Shown: positions 1 through 8,648 of the stretch, one piece after another
Layout of the letters: each line of letters begins with the position of its first letter
Position numbering within the stretch: the stretch's first letter is position 1
IMG/VR virus record: IMGVR_UViG_2537562017_000016
Direction: 5' to 3' (one strand)
DNA: 8,671 nt
Source: a virus
Lineage: Duplodnaviria > Heunggongvirae > Uroviricota > Caudoviricetes
Program-made: the position numbers and the translations under genes
The notes under the pieces: model-generated
What the model was told of the DNA's origin: nothing
The model's input: only the letters and a program-made list of their open reading frames with translations
Databases searched by the model: none

Positions 1-1256
1 GATTTGAATCCTCCGGCTCCGAGACGGTGCTCGGTACAGAAGTGAAATATGACACGCCGATCACCCGGACCATCACGTCGGCAAACATTGACCGTCTGCG
101 TTTTACTTTCGGCGTGCAGGCACTGGTGGAAACCACCTCAAAGGGGGACAGGAATCCATCGGAAGTCCGCCTGCTGGTTCAGATACAACGTAACGGTGGC
201 TGGGTGACGGAAAAAGACATCACCATTAAGGGTAAAACCACTTCACAGTATCTGGCCTCGGTGGTGGTGGATAACCTGCCGCCGCGCCCGTTCAGTATCC
301 GGATGCGCAGGATGACGCCGGACAGCACCACAGACCAGCTGCAGAACAAAACGCTCTGGTCGTCATACACCGAAATTATCGATGTGAAACAGTGCTACCC
401 GAACACGGCACTGTTCGGCGTGCAGGTGGACTCGGAGCAGTTCGGCAGCCAGCAGGTGAGCCGTAATTATCATCTGCGCGGGCGTATTCTGCAGGTGCCG
501 TCGAATTATAACCCGCAGACGCGGCAATACAGCGGTATCTGGGACGGAACGTTTAAACCGGCATACAGCAACAACATGGCCTGGTGTATGTGGGATATGC
601 TGACCCATCCGCGCTACGGCATGGGGAAACGTCTTGGTGCAGCGGATGTAGATAAATGGGCGCTGTATGTCATCGGCCAGTACTGCGACCAGTCGGTGCC
701 GGACGGCTTTGGCGGCACGGAGCCGCGCATCACCTGTAATGCGTACCTGACCACACAGCGCAAGGCGTGGGATGTGCTCAGTGATTTCTGCTCGGCGATG
801 CGCTGTATGCCGGTATGGAACGGGCAGACGCTGACGTTCGTGCAGGACCGACCATCAGATAAGGTGTGGACCTATAACCGCAGTAATGTGGTGATGCCGG
901 ATGATGGCGCGCCGTTCCGCTACAGCTTCAGCGCCCTGAAGGACCGCCATAATGCCGTTGAGGTGAACTGGATTGACCCGAACAACGGCTGGGAGACGGC
1001 GACAGAGCTTGTTGAAGATACGCAGGCCATTGCCCGTTACGGTCGTAATGTCACGAAGATGGATGCCTTTGGCTGTACCAGCCGGGGGCAGGCACACCGC
1101 GCCGGGCTGTGGCTGATTAAAACGGAACTGCTGGAACGCAGACCGTGGACTTCAGCGTGGGTGCCGAAGGGCTTCGCCATGTACCGGGCGATGTCATTGA
1201 AATCTGCGATGATGACTATGCCGGTATCCGCACCGGCGGGCGTGTGCTGGCGGTGA
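1..1256 (+). CDS. J: J fragment: intact J-like reading from the window edge to about 1136, then out-of-frame read-through to the stop at 1254-1256
   Basis: Six-frame ORF 27..1256 extended to the window edge (no stop upstream in this frame); J-like sequence ends at ...GLWLIKTELLE, after which the J reading (TQTVDFSVGAEG...) continues in another frame. Confidence 0.55.
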   Translation, partial: FESSGSETVLGTEVKYDTPITRTITSANIDRLRFTFGVQALVETTSKGDRNPSEVRLLVQIQRNGGWVTEKDITIKGKTTSQYLASVVVDNLPPRPFSIRMRRMTPDSTTDQLQNKTLWSSYTEIIDVKQCYPNTALFGVQVDSEQFGSQQVSRNYHLRGRILQVPSNYNPQTRQYSGIWDGTFKPAYSNNMAWCMWDMLTHPRYGMGKRLGAADVDKWALYVIGQYCDQSVPDGFGGTEPRITCNAYLTTQRKAWDVLSDFCSAMRCMPVWNGQTLTFVQDRPSDKVWTYNRSNVVMPDDGAPFRYSFSALKDRHNAVEVNWIDPNNGWETATELVEDTQAIARYGRNVTKMDAFGCTSRGQAHRAGLWLIKTELLERRPWTSAWVPKGFAMYRAMSLKSAMMTMPVSAPAGVCWR

Positions 1257-1735
1257 ACAGCCAGACCCGGACGCTGACGCTCGACCGTGAAATCACGCTG
1301 CCATCTCCGGACCACGCTGATAAGCCTGGTTGACGGAGGGATCCGGTCAGCGTGGAGGTCAGTCCGTCACCGACGGCGTGAAGGTAAAGTGAGCCGTGTT
1401 CCTGACGGCGTTGCGATACAGCGTTGGGGGCTGAAGCTGCCGACGTGCGCCAGCGCCTGTTCCGCTGCGTGAGTATCCGTGAGAACGAGACGGCACGTAT
1501 GCCATCACCGCCGTGCAGCATGTACCGGAAAAAGAGGCCATCGTGGATAACGGGGCGCACTTTGACGGCGACCAGAGCGGCACGGTAATGGTGTCACGCC
1601 GCCAGCGTGCAGCACTGACCGCGAAGTCACGCAGACAGCGGGGAATATCAGGTGCTGGCGCGTGGGACACCCGAAGGTGGTGAAGGGCGTGAGCTTCCTG
1701 CTTCGCCTGACCGTGGCAGCGGATGACGGCAGTGA

Positions 1736-3139
<1,404 letters not shown>

Positions 3140-3156
3140 ATTTTATAACCCAGAAC

Positions 3157-3184
3157 GGGCGTCAGAAATGACGCCTTTTTTATT
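3157..3184 (+). terminator. Rho-independent terminator downstream of J
   Basis: Perfect 7-bp stem GGCGTCA (3158-3164) / TGACGCC (3169-3175) with GAAA loop, followed directly by TTTTTTATT. Confidence 0.75.
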
Positions 3185-3205
3185 GCAGAGAAGCGAGAGG
3201 TAATT

Positions 3206-3802
3206 ATGCGTAAACTTTATGCCGCCATTTTGTCCGCAGCCATTTGTCTGGCCGTATCCGGTGCGCCTGCATGGGCGTCTGAACATCAGTCCACGCTGAG
3301 CGCGGGGTATCTTCATGCCTCGACGAACGTTCCCGGCAGCGATGATCTGAACGGGATTAACGTGAAATACCGTTATGAGTTTACGGACACACTGGGGATG
3401 GTGACGTCATTCAGCTATGCAGGAGACAAGAATCGCCAGTACCCGTTACAGCGATACCCGCTGGCATGAAGATTCCGTCGTAACCGCTGGTTCAGCGTGA
3501 TGGCGGGGCCGTCTGTGCGCGTGAATGAATGGTTCAGCGCGTATGCGATGGCGGGTGTGGCTTACAGCCGTGTGTCGACTTTCTCCGGGGATTATCTCCG
3601 CGTAACTGACAACAAGGGGAAAACGCACGATGTACTGACCGGAAGTGATGACGGTCGCCACAGCAACACGTCTCTGGCGTGGGGAGCTGGCGTGCAGTTT
3701 AACCCGACCGAATCCGTGGCCATTGATGTCGCTTATGAAGGCTCCGGCAGTGGTGACTGGCGCACTGACGGGCTCATCGTGGGTGTTGGTTATAAGTTCT
3801 GA
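3206..3802 (+). pseudogene. lom: Lom outer-membrane protein (Ail/Lom/OmpX/PagC beta-barrel family); frame interrupted by three single-base deletions near 3440-3441 and 3479 that create a premature TGA at 3467-3469
   Basis: ATG at 3206 with GAGAGG (3195-3200) 5 nt upstream. ORFs 3206..3469 and 3497..3802 are in the same frame and together give a Lom-like protein (MRKLYAAILSAAICLAVSGAPAWASEHQSTLSAGYLHAS... / ...FSVMAGPSVRVNEWFSAYAMAGVAYSRV...GVGYKF); the 3441-3479 stretch reads as Lom-like (TRYSDTRWHEDSV) only in the shifted frame. Confidence 0.85.
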
Positions 3803-3828
3803 TTAGCCAGGTAACACAGTGTTATGAC

Positions 3829-3856
3829 AGCCCGCCGGTTCAGGCGGGCTTTTTTG
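3829..3856 (+). terminator. Rho-independent terminator downstream of lom
   Basis: Perfect 8-bp stem AGCCCGCC (3829-3836) / GGCGGGCT (3843-3850) with GGTTCA loop, followed by a T run (3851-3855). Confidence 0.75.
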
Positions 3857-3866
3857 TGGGGTGAAT

Positions 3867-6800
3867 ATGGCAGTAAAGATTTCAGGTGTACTGAAAGACG
3901 GCACAGGAAAACCGGTACAGAACTGCACAATCCAGCTGAAAGCAAAACGTAACAGCACCACGGTGGTGGTGAACACGCTGGCCTCAGAAAATCCGGATGA
4001 AGCCGGGCGTTACAGCATGGACGTTGAGTACGGTCAGTACAGCGTTATTCTGTTGGTGGAAGGATTCCCGCCGTCACATGCCGGGACCATCACCGTGTAT
4101 GAAGATTCTCAACCCGGTACGCTGAATGATTTTCTCGGTGCCATGACGGAGGATGATGCCCGTCCGGAGGCACTGCGCCGTTTTGAACTGATGGTGGAAG
4201 AGGTGGCGCGTAACGCGTCCGGGTGGCACAGAACACGGCGCCGCGAAGAAGTCAGCCGTGATGCCAGCACATCAGCCCGTGAGGCGGCAACCCATGCGAC
4301 TGATGCTGCAGGCTCAGCACGCGCAGCCAGCACGTCAGCCGGACAGGCCGCGTCGTCGGCTCAGTCAGCGACTTCCAGCGCAGGAACGGCATCAACAAAG
4401 GCCACTGAAGCATCAAAAAGTGCTGCCGCTGCAGAGTCCTCAAAAAGCGCGGCAGCTACCAGTGCCAGTGCCGCGAAAACGTCAGAAACGAATGCTGCAG
4501 CGTCACAACAATCAGCAGCCACTTCTGCATCCACCGCGACTACGAAAGCGTCAGAAGCTGCCACCTCAGCCCGGGATGCGGCGGCTTCAAAAGAGGCGGC
4601 AAAATCATCAGAAACGAACGCATCCTCGAGCGCCAGTAGCGCAGCTTCCTCGGCAACAGCGGCAGGAAATTCCGCGAAGGCGGCAAAAACGTCAGAGACG
4701 AACGCCAGGTCTTCTGAAACGGCAGCGGGACAGAGCGCCTCGGCTGCGGCAGGCTCAAAAACAGCGGCTGCGTCGTCTGCCAGTGCAGCGTCAACAAGTG
4801 CCGGGCAGGCCTCAGCCAGTGCCACCGCCGCCGGAAAATCGGCAGAAAGCGCCGCATCGTCTGCTTCAACAGCCACAACGAAGGCTGGCGAAGCCACTGA
4901 ACAGGCCAGCGCAGCAGCGAGGTCTGCTTCCGCAGCGAAGACATCCGAAACGAACGCGAAAGCGTCGGAAACCAGCGCAGAATCCTCAAAAACGGCTGCC
5001 GCATCGTCAGCCAGTTCGGCGTCGTCATCGGCATCATCGGCGTCTGCTTCAAAAGATGAGGCGACCAGACAGGCGTCAGCAGCGAAGAGCAGCGCCACGA
5101 CGGCATCCACGAAGGCAACAGAGGCGGCAGGCAGTGCGACGGCAGCATCTCAGAGCAAAACTACTGCTGAATCCGCTGCGACCCGTGCGGAAGCTGCTGC
5201 TGATCGTGCTGAAGAGATTGCCGGTGCAGTTGCGATGGAAGACGCAAGCCTTACAACTAAAGGTGTTGTGAAACTTAGCAGTGCTGTTGATAGCACCAGT
5301 GAATCGCTGGCCGCAACGCCAAAAGCAGTTAAAGCAGCCAATGACAATGCGAATAGCAGGGTGCCATCTAACCGAAAAGTTAACGGAAAAGCATTGACTG
5401 CGGATATAACATTAACGCCGAAAGATATTGGTACTTTAAATTCAGTAACGATGTCTTTCTCTGGCGGGGCTGGGTGGTTCAAACTGGCTACGGTTACCAT
5501 GCCACAAGCGAGTTCCATCGTTTACATCGCATTGATTGGTGGCGCTGGTTACAACGTCGGTTCCCCACATCAGGCAGGCATTTCAGAACTGGTTCTACGA
5601 GCAGGCAATGGAAACCCCAAAGGAATTACCGGGGCTTTGTGGAAGCGTACAGCCGTCGGATTAACGAATTTCGCCTGGATCAACACATCCGGCGATACAT
5701 ATGATATTTACGTTGAGATTGGCAATTATGCGACGAGTGTAAATATCCATTGGGATTGTACTGCAAATGCGTCAGTTTCTGTTTATACCTCGCCAACATA
5801 TTCAGCGAGTAAGCCTTCCAGCGTTACCTATGGTGTTGTTTATACGATGTATAGCTCACATCAGAAACCTACACCATCAGATATTGGAGCACTGCCAACA
5901 ACCGGAGGAACAGTTTCAGGTCCGTTGTCTGTTACAGGTGGATTAACTGGTTCATTGAATGGTAATGCAAGTACAGCCACGAAATTGCAGACGGCAAGAT
6001 CTATCGGTGGAGTTGTTTTCGACGGTTCTGCAAATATTAACCTTCCAGGTGTAAACACTACGGGTAATCAGAACACCACTGGTAATGCTGCAACTGCTAC
6101 AAAACTTCAGACTGCAAGAAAAATATCCGGTGTTCCATTTGATGGTTCTACTGATATCACTTTAACCGCCGCGCATGTGGCTGCTTTTGCCAGAAGGGCA
6201 ACGGATACATATGCCGATGCGGATGGTGGCGTTCCCTGGAATGCCGAATCAGGCGCTTACAATGTCACCCGCTCTGGCGACACCTATATTCTGGTTAACT
6301 TCTATACCGGAGTCGGAAGTTGCCGGACCCTGCAGATGAAGGCGCATTACAGAAATGGAGGTCTGTTCTACCGTTCCTCAAGAGATGGCTATGGTTTTGA
6401 GGAAGGCTGGGCAGAAGTTTATACCTCGAAAAATCTTCCACCAGAAAGCTACCCAGTTGGCGCACCAATCCCGTGGCCATCAGATACCGTTCCGTCTGGT
6501 TATGCCCTGATGCAGGGGCAGACTTTTGACAAATCTGCTTACCCGAAACTTGCAGCGGCTTATCCGTCAGGCGTGATCCCTGATATGCGTGGCTGGACGA
6601 TTAAGGGCAAGCCCGCCAGTGGTCGTGCCGTATTGTCTCAGGAACAGGATGGCATTAAATCGCATACCCACAGCGCCAGCGCATCCAGTACGGATTTGGG
6701 GACGAAAACCACATCGTCGTTTGATTACGGCACTAAATCCACGAATAACACCGGGGCGCATACCCATAGTGTTAGCGGTACGGCTGCTTCAGCCGGTGCA

Positions 6801-7091
6801 CATACCCATTCGATAACATTTGTTTCAGGTGGCACCAAAGGTGCTCCGGGAAGTGGATCACCTGATTATTCTAAATACAGTGTTAACACTTCTTCTGCAG
6901 GCGCTCATACGCACTCTGTATCGGGTACTGCTGCAAGCGCAGGTGCACACGCACATACTGTAGGTATTGGTGCGCATACGCACTCGGTTGCGATTGGTTC
7001 ACATGGACACACCATCACCGTTAACGCTGCTGGTAACGCGGAAAACACCGTCAAAAACATCGCATTTAACTATATTGTGAGGCTTGCATAA
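3867..7091 (+). CDS. stfR: Side tail fibre protein (Stf; Rac-type StfR-like): N-terminal tail-attachment region, Ala/Ser/Thr-rich shaft, tail-fibre repeats, collar-like domain and His-rich HxH C-terminal array
   Basis: ATG at 3867 with GGGG (3858-3861) upstream; the ORF track's GTG at 3861 is less likely. Protein [37 protein letters not shown]...; two KLQTAR-x-I-GG/SG-V-x-FDGS repeats; GAPIPWPSD...[19 protein letters not shown] collar-like motif; repeated GAHTHS/GAHAHT/SHGHT; ends ...[25 protein letters not shown] at 7089-7091. Confidence 0.9.
4260..5230 (+). repeat. Degenerate in-frame tandem repeat region encoding the Ala/Ser/Thr-rich shaft of Stf
   Basis: About 320 codons almost entirely A/S/T/K/E/Q, with a recurring AAKTSETNA-type motif at DNA positions about 4473, 4603, 4681 and 4936. 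GC-rich GCN/TCN/ACN codon bias, which generates the long spurious ORFs in the alternative and antisense frames. Confidence 0.6.
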
Positions 7092-7675
7092 TGGCATTCA
7101 GAATGAGTGAACAACCACGGACCATAAAAATTTATAATCTGCTGGCCGGAACTAATGAATTTATTGGTGAAGGTGATGCATATATTCCGCCTCATACAGG
7201 TCTGCCAGCAAACAGTACCGACATTGCACCGCCAGATATTCCAGCTGGCTTCGTGGCTGTTTTCAACAGTGATGAGTCATCGTGGCATCTCGTTGAAGAT
7301 CATCGGGGTAAAACGGTTTATGACGTGGCTTCCGGCGACGCGTTATTTATTTCTGAACTCGGCTCATTACCGGAAAATGTCACCTGGTTATCGCCGGAAG
7401 GGGAGTTTCAGAAGTGGAACGGCACAGCCTGGGTGAAAGATGCAGAAGCAGAAAAACTGTTCCGGATCCGGGAGGCGGAAGAAACAAAAAACAGCCTGAT
7501 GCAGGTAGCCAGTGAGCATATTGCGCCACTTCAGGATGCTGTAGATCTGGAAATCGCAACGGAGGAAGAAACCTCATTGCTGGAAGTCTGGAAAAAGTAT
7601 CGGGTGTTGCTGAACCGTGTTGATACATCAACTGCACCGGATATTGAATGGCCAACAGGACCCATTATCGAATAG
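7091..7675 (+). CDS. tfaR: Tail fibre assembly protein (Tfa; TfaR-like chaperone for Stf)
   Basis: ATG at 7091 overlaps the stf stop (TAATG), with GTGAGG (7077-7082) upstream, indicating translational coupling. 194 aa, [54 protein letters not shown]..., typical of Tfa. Confidence 0.9.
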
Positions 7676-7683
7676 TGCATTAC

Positions 7684-7722
7684 AAACTGCAGGATATTAT
7701 ATGGGATAATATTCTGCAGTTT
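7684..7722. terminator. 17-bp inverted repeat with 5-nt loop between convergent tfa and pin; candidate bidirectional terminator or protein-binding site
   Basis: AAACTGCAGGATATTAT (7684-7700), loop ATGGG, ATAATATTCTGCAGTTT (7706-7722). One non-Watson-Crick position (G7693 with T7713) is a G-U pair in the + strand transcript. AT-rich stem, so terminator strength is uncertain. Confidence 0.45.
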
Positions 7723-7785: not shown

Positions 7786-8376
7786 TTATATGTCAGGTGT
7801 CTGAAGTTTTGCTTTGGCTCTTAAAATGGTTTGCCGCGAGGTTTTGAATTCCCGGGCAATGGCACTTATACTTACACCTGACTTAATTCGTTCGAATACC
7901 GCCTGTTTCTGTTCTTCATTTAACACAGGTGGTCGACCAAAACGTTTCCCTGCGCCGCGGGCTCTTACTATCCCGGAATGAGTGCGTTCAAGTAAAAGGT
8001 CTCGTTCAAATTCAGCGACTGCTGAAATTACTTGCATCATCATTTTTCCTGTTGGACTGGTCAGGTCAATGCCCCCCAATGCTAAGCAATGCACTCTGAT
8101 ACCTGTTTCGGTCAGTTGTTCCACTGTTTTCCTGATATCCATTGCATTACAACCAAGGCGATCCAGTTTTGTCACAATCAATTGATCACCACATTTCAGG
8201 CGAGCAAGCAACCGGTTAAAACCAGGACGCTCACTGGTTGCTGCTGAGCCGCTAATGTGTTCTTCGATTATTTGCTGAGGTTTGATTTTAAAACCTGCAC
8301 TTTCGATTTCCCGGCGTTGATTTTCGGTGGTCTGATCCAGCGTTGATATCCGACAGTAAGCAAAAATTTGAGACAT
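7786..8376 (-). CDS. pinR: Serine recombinase, DNA invertase of the Pin family (PinR/PinQ-like)
   Basis: 196 aa, [29 protein letters not shown]... with the catalytic Ser in the YCRISTLDQ motif at residue 10 and a C-terminal helix-turn-helix region ([21 protein letters not shown]). Start is ATG at 8374-8376 (- strand), stop TAA at 7786-7788. Confidence 0.9.
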
Positions 8377-8648
8377 AGTGAGACTCTATACGAAATTGGT
8401 GTTCATATCATAATGCATCTCAGAAAATAATTATGATTATTTTTGTGCATATTTGTATGTACACGTTCGAAAATAAACGAATGCGTATGCAACCCCGTAA
8501 TTTTGGTGAGACCCAAAATCGATTTTGTGAAAAATGGCTTTAACTCGGTTTGTTTTTCGAGTTCCGGGCGGACTCAAGGGAGAAGAATAGTGTTGCGTGT
8601 TATTTTAACCAGATTTCAAGTTGTTTGGTCGTGGAAAAGTGGAGCAAA
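8377..8648. promoter_or_regulatory. AT-rich divergent intergenic region upstream of pin and of the next gene; contains a 7-bp perfect palindrome pair
   Basis: Non-coding and AT-rich. ATTTTGG (8500-8506), 6-bp spacer, CCAAAAT (8513-8519), followed by a direct partial repeat GATTTTGTGA (8521-8530). No promoter elements could be assigned confidently by eye. Confidence 0.3.

Follow-up and report, generated by a model that had tools for sequence, protein, structure and literature searches.

Probable multi-block mosaicism of the side tail fibre gene stf in a lambdoid Escherichia coli prophage

Does an abrupt fall in G+C content midway along a side tail fibre gene mark a segment acquired from another phage, or is it a by-product of the protein that the DNA encodes? 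The question is raised by stf (3861–7091, + strand) in an 8,671-nucleotide stretch of a Caudoviricetes genome (IMG/VR record IMGVR_UViG_2537562017_000016), referred to here as the window. The original prediction was that 5230–6450 forms a single low-G+C, beta-rich module with different codon usage and sharp compositional boundaries, exchanged between phages as a route to host-range change. Sequence comparison strongly suggests that stf, the side tail fibre gene of a lambdoid E. coli prophage of the Rac/Qin type, is a mosaic of several blocks.

Gene neighbourhood and the heptad shaft

J, lom, stf, tfa, and pin lie in the window, which covers the tail end of this prophage. The stf reading frame, recognized from the ORF list, Pfam domains (phage_tail_N, Collar, and Phage_fiber), and PDB 9e7m, is intact, opens at GTG 3861, and encodes 1076 residues; the true start is likely ATG 3867 (MAVKISG...). 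Membership of the Stf family is indicated by the J–lom–stf–tfa gene order and by the N-terminal prophage tail fibre attachment domain (aa 3–125; 3867–4235, + strand; Pfam PF08400, E=1e-60), which has a G+C of 0.525 and a GC3 of 0.57. The lambda tail fibre N-terminus (PDB 9e7m) matches aa 3–96 with E=5e-52. Fibres of the Stf class are trimers on the virion and bind OmpC or LPS; here, both J and lom have damaged reading frames, and the frameshift in J may render the prophage defective. The cognate assembly chaperone gene tfa (7091–7675, + strand; PF02413, Caudo_TAP, E=2.8e-44) lies directly downstream, its start overlapping the stf stop codon. It converges with a pin-type serine DNA invertase gene (7786–8376, − strand; Pfam Resolvase and HTH_7). 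In E. coli relatives, the equivalents of these two genes are labelled tfaR/tfaQ and pinR/pinQ.

The anchor is followed by an Ala/Ser/Thr shaft (4248–5225, + strand; G+C 0.615) of about 46 uninterrupted heptads with the pattern xSAxxAx. Residue identity is 0.39–0.45 at lags of 7, 14, 21, 28, and 35 as compared with about 0.18 at other lags, in one register all 46 heptads have Ala, and the DNA repeats are spaced at multiples of 21 nt. This periodicity makes a coiled coil probable. Ur-lambda Stf and the StfR/StfQ proteins of Rac and Qin share the J–lom–stf–tfa position, the anchor, the Ala/Ser shaft, the collar and HxH tip, and the Tfa partner.

Composition along stf

G+C falls from 0.615 in the shaft (4200–5222) to 0.469 in 5229–6452 and is 0.520 in 6453–7088. 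The best single change point of total G+C along the gene is nt 5235 (t=6.0, p≤0.003), a value exceeding all 300 codon permutations against which it was tested, so that the left edge predicted near 5230 is genuine and in the right place. Of the drop of 0.146, GC2 (0.80 to 0.54) contributes about 0.087, GC3 (0.50 to 0.38) about 0.04, and GC1 about 0.017. Codon positions 1 and 2 thus account for approximately 70% of it, and the drop mostly reflects the Ala/Ser/Thr content of the shaft rather than codon choice. The shaft reaches a G+C of 0.615 because its Ala/Ser heptad repeat has a GC2 of 0.80. Beside an Ala/Ser-rich repeat, a raw G+C step mostly reflects amino-acid content, and GC3 is the measure to judge by.

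A true synonymous shift remains beside the amino-acid effect. The GC3 of 0.38 in 5229–6452 compares with 0.58 predicted when codons are resampled with the usage of the other genes of the window (z=-8.3) and with 0.46 under stf-wide synonymous usage (z=-3.3). The claim of lower G+C with different codon usage accordingly survives for GC3, subject to most of the drop lying in the first two codon positions. GC3 has its change point at 5142, and segmentation with a permutation control delineates a GC3-low island at 5694–6161 (+ strand; 0.26 inside versus 0.48 in the rest of stf; t=5.1 versus a permutation maximum of 4.2; sliding GC3 0.27–0.30). Two homology junctions coincide with the GC3 change point and with the island's right end at 6161; its left end at 5694 matches none of the junctions mapped.

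Composition shows no edge at 6450. The best low-G+C interval extends to about 6900, GC3 drops again to 0.25–0.33 at 6740–7040, and it is also low downstream (0.43 in tfa and 0.37 in pin). The sharp boundaries of the original prediction therefore reduce to one sharp left edge, itself mostly an amino-acid effect; as a homology boundary, position 6450 exists only in comparisons with lambda and mEp460. The distal stf halves of 2H10, mEp460, Cyrano, and 9g likewise have G+C and GC3 below those of their shafts, so low G+C alone is no mark of import, and its use as a marker specific to the central cassette was rejected. On this evidence, the G+C-rich shaft is as much an outlier as the centre.

Homology blocks and their junctions

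Block edges were set by 30-nt sliding identity against about ten relatives, and carriers of the first central block, block A, were sought among 50,697 phage records. The nearest relatives differ from one stf segment to the next, and identity changes abruptly between segments; the per-segment comparison put forward with the original prediction thus bears out a mosaic fibre. It does not bear out 5230–6450 as one module, which comprises at least two nested blocks, A and B, joined at about 6080–6164 in the second of two tail-fibre repeats.

The upstream junction zone (5140–5369, + strand) was delimited by sliding identity, Pfam PF03406, and the change points of GC3 (5142) and G+C (5235). The lambdoid relatives 2H10, ev099, and mEp460 are 93–100% identical to stf up to about 5140 and 60–87% across about 5140/5170–5350, and they have no detectable homology across 5350–6080 by sliding identity or blastn. 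Lambda, whose shorter stf lacks both blocks, is 69.5% identical over 5077–5332 and has no nucleotide homology to 5350–6450. The left junction falls at the Phage_fiber_2 motif (aa 463–503, conserved stretch 5259–5351; PF03406, E=3.6e-19), and the Mu S structures PDB 5yvq and 8ju3 match aa 455–506.

Block A (about 5150–6110) occurs at 94–98% identity and full length in only three of the phage records, namely the lambdoid phi458, Cyrano, and CMS-2020a. phi458 is 97% identical across 3101–6110; past about 6110 it diverges into a stretch that contains an inverted ‘tail fiber’ ORF, IS1, and an invertase fragment. In the 108-kb phages Cyrano and CMS-2020a, the match (94%) is confined to 4480–6110/6400: they have the distal shaft from about 4480 in common with stf, but the N-terminal anchor, J (no similarity), and everything after about 6110–6400 are unrelated. 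The identity of donor-like phages (94%) is no higher than that of the sister-lambdoid flanks (93–94%), which argues that the exchange was not recent. Of 5,426 complete E. coli genomes, 3,558 carry the anchor and shaft (15,718 places) and 557 carry block A (775 places, 173 of them plasmid-borne), making block A a minority allele at about 5% of stf-like places. E. coli GE3 has the same stf allele at 98% amino acid identity.

The core of block A (5349–5960, + strand) was characterized with blastn/blastp, PHROG, AF2, and Foldseek as a cassette encoding a knob, D1 (aa ~527–662, nt 5439–5846), that is predicted to be a beta-sandwich. Neither blastn nor blastp detects homology to the core at the equivalent part of 2H10, ev099, mEp460, or lambda, and BLASTP finds no similarity between aa ~505–735 and the corresponding stretch in 2H10 or mEp460. 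Searched alone against Pfam, block A (5349–6080) returns no family even at E≤10, and a PDB sequence search finds nothing for aa 507–772. The core does match PHROG 3299, 21552, and 6722, and it is 40–50% identical at the amino acid level to T-even gp37 and to fibres of 86–90-kb Salmonella/Escherichia phages. D1 homologues occur in both groups of fibres and also upstream of depolymerase beta-helices. Recent transfer from T-even phages was ruled out, as block A has only this 40–50% amino acid identity to gp37 and the tip only about 71% nucleotide identity to T4.

The AF2 model covers a single chain of what is a trimeric fibre, and its mean pLDDT is 63.7, with 70–88 in D1. Its alignment was built from 50%-cluster representatives because the plain homologue set, consisting of near-identical E. 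coli proteins with many truncated calls from Met459, was unfit for a deep alignment. Foldseek matches D1 to 6tgf, 6c72, and tail fibres and depolymerases in BFVD. The sequences quoted for this region in the original prediction are all present: the DNA string at 5424–5453, WFKLATVT...GYNVG at aa 539–567 (nt 5475–5561), and a second protein stretch at aa 629–651 (nt 5745–5813). Its beta-rich centre is supported at the level of prediction by the modelled beta-sandwich knob domains and linker repeats in 5230–6450, and the domain search that it proposed for aa ~455–860 yields Phage_fiber_2 and PF12604/Mu S but no Pfam family in 5349–6080.

Both of the expected 28-residue tail-fibre repeats were confirmed at 5961–6044 and 6081–6164 (+ strand), and 53 of their 84 DNA positions are identical. 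The motif (...FDGS) recurs many times in numerous phage fibres, including those of P1, P7, Goslar, and Acinetobacter T4-like phages. Repeat 2 is the downstream junction by sliding identity: that of phi458 and Cyrano ends at about 6110, inside the repeat, and that of 2H10, ev099, and the P1-like Ro157c2 is back to at least 93% at about 6140–6164 and persists up to about 6740. Siphovirus 9g is 87–100% identical over 6044–6403 only, and homology to lambda and mEp460 restarts only at about 6450–6460. Both junctions thus lie in motifs conserved across otherwise unrelated fibres.

Block B in its full extent (about 6140–6740) is 93–100% identical in 2H10, ev099, and Ro157c2. Its part at 6165–6461 (+ strand), assigned from Pfam PF12604, PDB 8ju3, and the identity maps, encodes a predicted beta domain, D2 (aa 773–867), that resembles gp37_C (PF12604, E=1e-5 to 1.5e-6) and Mu S (8ju3; Foldseek 43% identity, E=2e-6; PDB sequence match to aa 773–867). 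This region is present in 2H10, ev099, Ro157c2, and 9g and missing from lambda and mEp460. The collar, HxH needle, and receptor-binding tip follow (aa 862–1076; 6444–7088, + strand; Pfam Collar at aa 867–914 and Phage_fiber). The T4 gp37 tip (PDB 2xgf) aligns end to end with these residues (E=2.4e-88), HxH motifs included, of which the tip holds seven. Within the tip, identity collapses against every relative compared in a hypervariable patch at about 6740–6950. In contrast to the tip, the N-terminal attachment region and shaft are unrelated to those of T4, a virulent myovirus.

Origin and role of the central blocks

That the centre merely diverged in place, with the G+C step a pure by-product of protein composition, is extremely improbable. 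This explanation would account for the weight of codon positions 1 and 2 in the drop and for the lower G+C seen distally in other stf genes. It does not account for the GC3 shift (z=-8.3 and -3.3, with a permutation-supported change point and island), for the 94–98% identity of block A to 108-kb phages with nothing else in common with the prophage, or for a block with neither DNA nor protein homology in sister lambdoids whose flanks are 93–100% identical. If blocks were indeed exchanged, the adjacent Pin-type invertase could have swapped them at crossover sites inside stf. Such a site-specific route has been suggested to explain how P1, Mu, e14, and others exchange tail fibres, and invertase-driven exchange is cited for stf genes (PMC3945230). 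A serine invertase gene adjoins the fibre genes here as in the switched systems Mu G, P1 C, and e14 P, with pin only 110 bp downstream of tfa. In addition, phi458 and Ro157c2 carry an invertase along with tail-fibre and assembly ORFs in inverted orientation, and the point at which each gains or loses homology to the window lies at about 6067–6145. The Phage_fiber_2 motif and D2 match Mu S (5yvq and 8ju3), and the Ro157c2 S gene is 93% identical to 6067–6737; the Mu/P1 S protein (Sc/Sv, under Gin/Cin inversion) is, however, a myovirus baseplate fibre, and the stf backbone is that of a siphovirus side fibre.

The crossover consensus of Gin/Cin/Hin/Pin-type invertases is TTNTCNNAAACCNNGGTTTNNGANAA. 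With this consensus, no such site, and hence no inverted 26-bp site pair, was found in the window at up to three mismatches. Inverted repeats linking stf to the pin side do not exceed 16-nt chance-level matches; one of these (5320–5335/8537–8552) was judged to be chance. There is also no inverted Sv′/U′ cassette and no reverse-strand fibre ORF in the 110 bp between tfa and pin, with 295 bp visible past pin. These negative searches, together with junctions in protein-conserved motifs that suit homologous recombination, make the invertase route very unlikely. A third proposal concerns purpose rather than mechanism, in that the swap would be adaptive for host range and D1 an accessory glycan- or receptor-binding domain. 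The predicted D1 beta-sandwich resembles domains preceding the catalytic beta-helix of tailspikes and EPS depolymerases, and a minority allele at about 5% is expected of a polymorphic specificity element. Against it, the receptor-binding site of the solved homologue is the C-terminal tip (2xgf), outside block A, and the lectin and CBM fold matches of D1 in Foldseek are at noise level (probability about 0.1). The proposal is on balance unlikely, and the host-range link predicted for 5230–6450 finds no support, as the tip (aa 862–1076) and the variable patch lie outside it. It is more speculative still that D1 might bind surface glycans as an accessory module and be traded separately from the receptor-binding tip; if so, D1 would give lambdoid side fibres a second exchangeable, mid-fibre specificity determinant.

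The favoured explanation remains a mosaic assembled by homologous or relaxed homologous recombination in short motifs conserved across tail fibres, probably Phage_fiber_2 on the left and the 28-residue ...FDGS repeat on the right. In order, the gene comprises (i) a lambdoid N-terminal anchor and Ala/Ser heptad shaft, (ii) a cassette of about 1 kb (~5150–6110) in which a conserved fibre motif is joined by a predicted beta-sandwich knob and by linker repeats, (iii) a cassette (~6140–6740) with a Mu-S/gp37_C-like domain and the collar, (iv) the hypervariable HxH patch, and (v) the T4-gp37-like tip; the cognate tfa comes next. Mainly, the G+C step at about 5235 is the end of the GCN/TCN/ACN-rich shaft, and the smaller GC3 shift would stem from DNA of a lower-G+C pan-phage tail-fibre gene pool. 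The cassette itself may have a structural role as shaft or knob.

The mosaicism of stf is real but ordinary, known in kind, and textbook behaviour of phage tail fibre genes. Horizontal transfer of stf genes among unrelated temperate and virulent phages is documented, and lambda recombines with Rac and Qin across stf–tfa (PMC3945230). Engineered lambda–P2 Stf chimeras are functional (bioRxiv 10.1101/2022.09.30.509847). The locus adds no new principle, and its stf allele is already common, occurring in hundreds of sequenced E. coli genomes. Phages, and delivery vehicles derived from them, alter what they bind through tail-fibre mosaicism; stf offers a clean natural example of it, and its two conserved junction motifs could be splice points for engineered Stf chimeras.

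Gene neighbourhood and domain anatomy of Stf

The ORF list and Pfam searches identify the window as a lambdoid prophage's distal tail region, with the C-terminal portion of the tip attachment protein J at 3-3136, lom at 3206-3802, stf (1076 aa, probable ATG at 3867) at 3861-7091, tfa at 7091-7675, and a convergent pin-type invertase at 7786-8376. E. coli chromosomes match the entire window (93-97% coverage, ~95% identity), and because the neighbours there are annotated gpJ, Ail/Lom, tfaR/tfaQ, and pinR/pinQ, the window groups with Rac/Qin-type prophages. No record identical over the full window occurs in the complete-genome set. The J frame is broken: the intact J of E. coli GE3 aligns in frame 3 at nt 3-1784 and in frame 2 at nt 1136-3136, which implies at least one frameshift and thus a defective prophage or a sequence with errors. 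An in-frame TGA (3467-3469) and a short local frame slip leave lom as two ORFs, 3206-3469 and 3497-3802. A 17-nt inverted repeat at 7684-7722 (94% complementary, 5-nt loop), lying between tfa and the convergent pin, may be a bidirectional terminator.

Stf opens with a prophage tail fibre N-terminal domain (aa 3-125; PF08400, E=1e-60) that matches PDB 9e7m, the N-terminal piece of lambda's tail fibre protein. Lag identity reveals an uninterrupted heptad repeat at aa ~130-455 (nt 4248-5225), in which ~46 heptads keep one xSAxxAx register throughout, a single position is Ala in 46/46, and residue identity is 0.39-0.45 at lags 7, 14, 21, 28, and 35 versus ~0.18 elsewhere. Given this periodicity, the Ala/Ser/Thr shaft most likely forms a very long Ala/Ser-cored coiled coil. 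Long ORFs (202-337 aa) in other frames or on the other strand of the shaft, at 4258-5271 (+), 4361-5110 (-), and 4540-5148 (-), result from the repetition of GCN-rich codons in the shaft; their homologues, likewise artefacts, are labelled orf206b or hypothetical proteins in the records of phi458, ev099, and lambda. In the databases, many "tail fiber" proteins begin at Met459, apparently because gene callers mishandle the shaft region.

Distal to the shaft lie a Phage_fiber_2 motif (aa 463-503; PF03406, E=3.6e-19) that is also present in Mu S (5yvq/8ju3); a stretch, aa ~505-700, for which Pfam and PDB sequence searches return no family and no relative; two copies of a 28-aa repeat (aa 701-728 and aa 741-768); a gp37_C-like domain (aa 773-867; PF12604) shared with Mu S residues 322-415; and the receptor-binding tip (aa 862-1076), which carries seven HxH motifs and can be aligned over its full length to 2XGF, the corresponding tip of T4 gp37 (E=2.4e-88).

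Composition and relatives along stf

The original prediction placed one low-G+C, horizontally exchanged module at 5230-6450, with sharp edges and different codon usage; the sequences it quoted are all present where it located them. The shaft (4200-5222) has a G+C of 0.615, against 0.469 for 5229-6452 and 0.520 for 6453-7088; in a change-point scan over codons, the single step that fits total G+C best falls at nt 5235 (t=6.0, exceeding all 300 permutations). The left step is thus real and 5 nt off the predicted start. In other stf genes, too, the distal half is lower in G+C than the G+C-rich shaft before it. From shaft to centre, GC1 goes from 0.54 to 0.49, GC2 from 0.80 to 0.54, and GC3 from 0.50 to 0.38. 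Thus ~70% of the G+C drop is due to the encoded amino acids (shaft Ala GCN, Ser TCN, Thr ACN), the shaft GC2 of 0.80 reflecting its Ala/Ser/Thr heptads, and codon usage accounts for the smaller part. The predicted codon-usage difference does exist and is modest: on synonymous codon resampling of the same protein, the GC3 of 0.38 in 5229-6452 lies 8.3 SD under the expectation from other window genes and 3.3 SD under that from stf-wide usage. Change-point scanning puts a GC3 shift at 5142, and the strongest GC3-low island spans 5694-6161 (0.26 vs 0.48; t=5.1, permutation maximum 4.2). GC3 is ~0.5 over 6200-6740 and then 0.25-0.33 over 6740-7040, with 0.43 in tfa and 0.37 in pin. Neither the GC nor the GC3 profile has an edge at 6450, and the predicted sharp right boundary is not real.

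When the window is mapped to ten loci by blastn and by sliding identity (30 nt), the best relatives differ along the gene. The sister lambdoids 2H10, ev099, and mEp460 are 93-100% identical up to ~5140 and 60-87% over 5170-5350 (the Phage_fiber_2 motif), and give no alignment over 5350-6080; aa ~505-735 has no BLASTP match to the corresponding part of 2H10 or mEp460. Identity is at least 93% from ~6140-6164 to ~6740 in 2H10, ev099, and the P1-like Ro157c2, and homology to lambda and mEp460 restarts only at ~6450-6460. The lambdoid phi458 is 97% identical from lom to ~6110. The 108-kb phages Cyrano and CMS-2020a match at 94% only over ~4480-6110/6400, with no similarity to the window in J or the fibre ends, and the siphovirus 9g is 87-100% identical solely over 6044-6403 and 53-73% from 6404 onward. 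As no single lineage is the best match throughout, the mosaic interpretation of stf stands.

The proposed single module does not, being split by a junction at 6080-6164, within the second 28-aa repeat, into block A (~5150-6110) and block B (~6140-6740). Block A is the rarer, with 5349-6080 present full length at ≥94% in only 3/50,697 phage records; block B is common to many phage types, and the tip (6453-7091) is matched by 311 phage records, lambdoid, P1-like, P2-like, and T-even included. Position 6450 is a boundary solely relative to lambda and mEp460. Two compositional landmarks survive permutation, the GC3 change point (5142) and the GC3 island's right end (6161). Both coincide with these homology junctions and thus support them independently; no matching junction was found for the island's left end at 5694.

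Predicted modules encoded by the central blocks

The central region (aa 497-864) has 4,346 homologues in the 50%-cluster library, among which its sub-blocks recur separately, some many times per protein. An AlphaFold2 monomer model (17 diverse sequences, mean pLDDT 63.7) contains two better-defined beta domains, D1 (aa ~527-662, pLDDT 70-88) and D2 (aa ~792-853). By Foldseek, D2 resembles the Mu tail fibre (8ju3; 43% identity, E=2e-6), and D1 resembles the N-terminal beta-sandwiches of the Fri1 tailspike (6c72) and of WceF, a tailspike-like protein (6tgf; E~1e-5, 11% identity). In BFVD the D1 model retrieves tail fibres along with T-even gp37 proteins and EPS depolymerases. By tblastn, T-even gp37 and fibres from 86-90-kb Salmonella/Escherichia phages hold D1 relatives at 40-50% aa identity. 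In the fibre shaft, the central blocks would serve as structural knob and linker modules.

The host-range role proposed for 5230-6450 finds no support. Because the receptor-binding tip sits outside block A, an effect of block A swaps on host range is possible but unsupported. It is unlikely that knob D1 is a second binding module traded independently. A candidate specificity determinant is the hypervariable patch at ~6740-6950 within the HxH needle, in the portion of the tip that differs from fibre to fibre; here every relative examined loses identity between flanks above 90%.

Route of exchange and frequency of the allele

The junctions fall in motifs that otherwise unrelated fibres have conserved, so the simplest mechanism would be recombination at these motifs, homologous or relaxed homologous, between infecting phages and co-resident prophages. 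Experiments by De Paepe et al. showed lambda recombining with Rac and Qin over stf-tfa (PMC3945230), stf being described there as a documented ancient exchange among temperate and virulent phages, and functional lambda-P2 Stf chimeras show that modular joins give working fibres (bioRxiv 10.1101/2022.09.30.509847). The alternative cited is that stf-associated invertases drive exchange (PMC3945230). Such a route is not supported at this locus, though it may have acted historically, as the window contains no Gin/Cin/Hin/Pin-type crossover site with ≤3 mismatches to the consensus, no meaningful inverted repeats, and no alternative inverted cassette between tfa and pin. Upstream of pin, GCTTTAACTCGGTTTGTTTTTCGA at 8537-8560 has a CTCGGTTT core that is reminiscent of half a gix/pix crossover site, and it does not fit the full consensus. 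The phi458 fibre departs from the window at ~6110, past which its locus (L001 5880-8175, own coordinates) holds a small ORF, a "tail fiber" ORF in inverted orientation, IS1, and a truncated DNA invertase, and looks like a decayed invertible fibre segment.

E. coli GE3 has the same stf allele (98% aa; 100% nt over 4758-6557). Block A occurs in 557/5,426 complete E. coli genomes at 775 places, 173 of them on plasmids, against 15,718 places in 3,558 genomes for the anchor and shaft; block A is thus a minority allele (~5% of places) of a very common gene. Tail-fibre mosaicism, the relationship between lambda Stf and T4 gp37, and fibre-segment exchange have long been established, and the allele is abundant in public E. 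coli genomes, making this a sound, ordinary annotation. The exchange is neither recent nor private.
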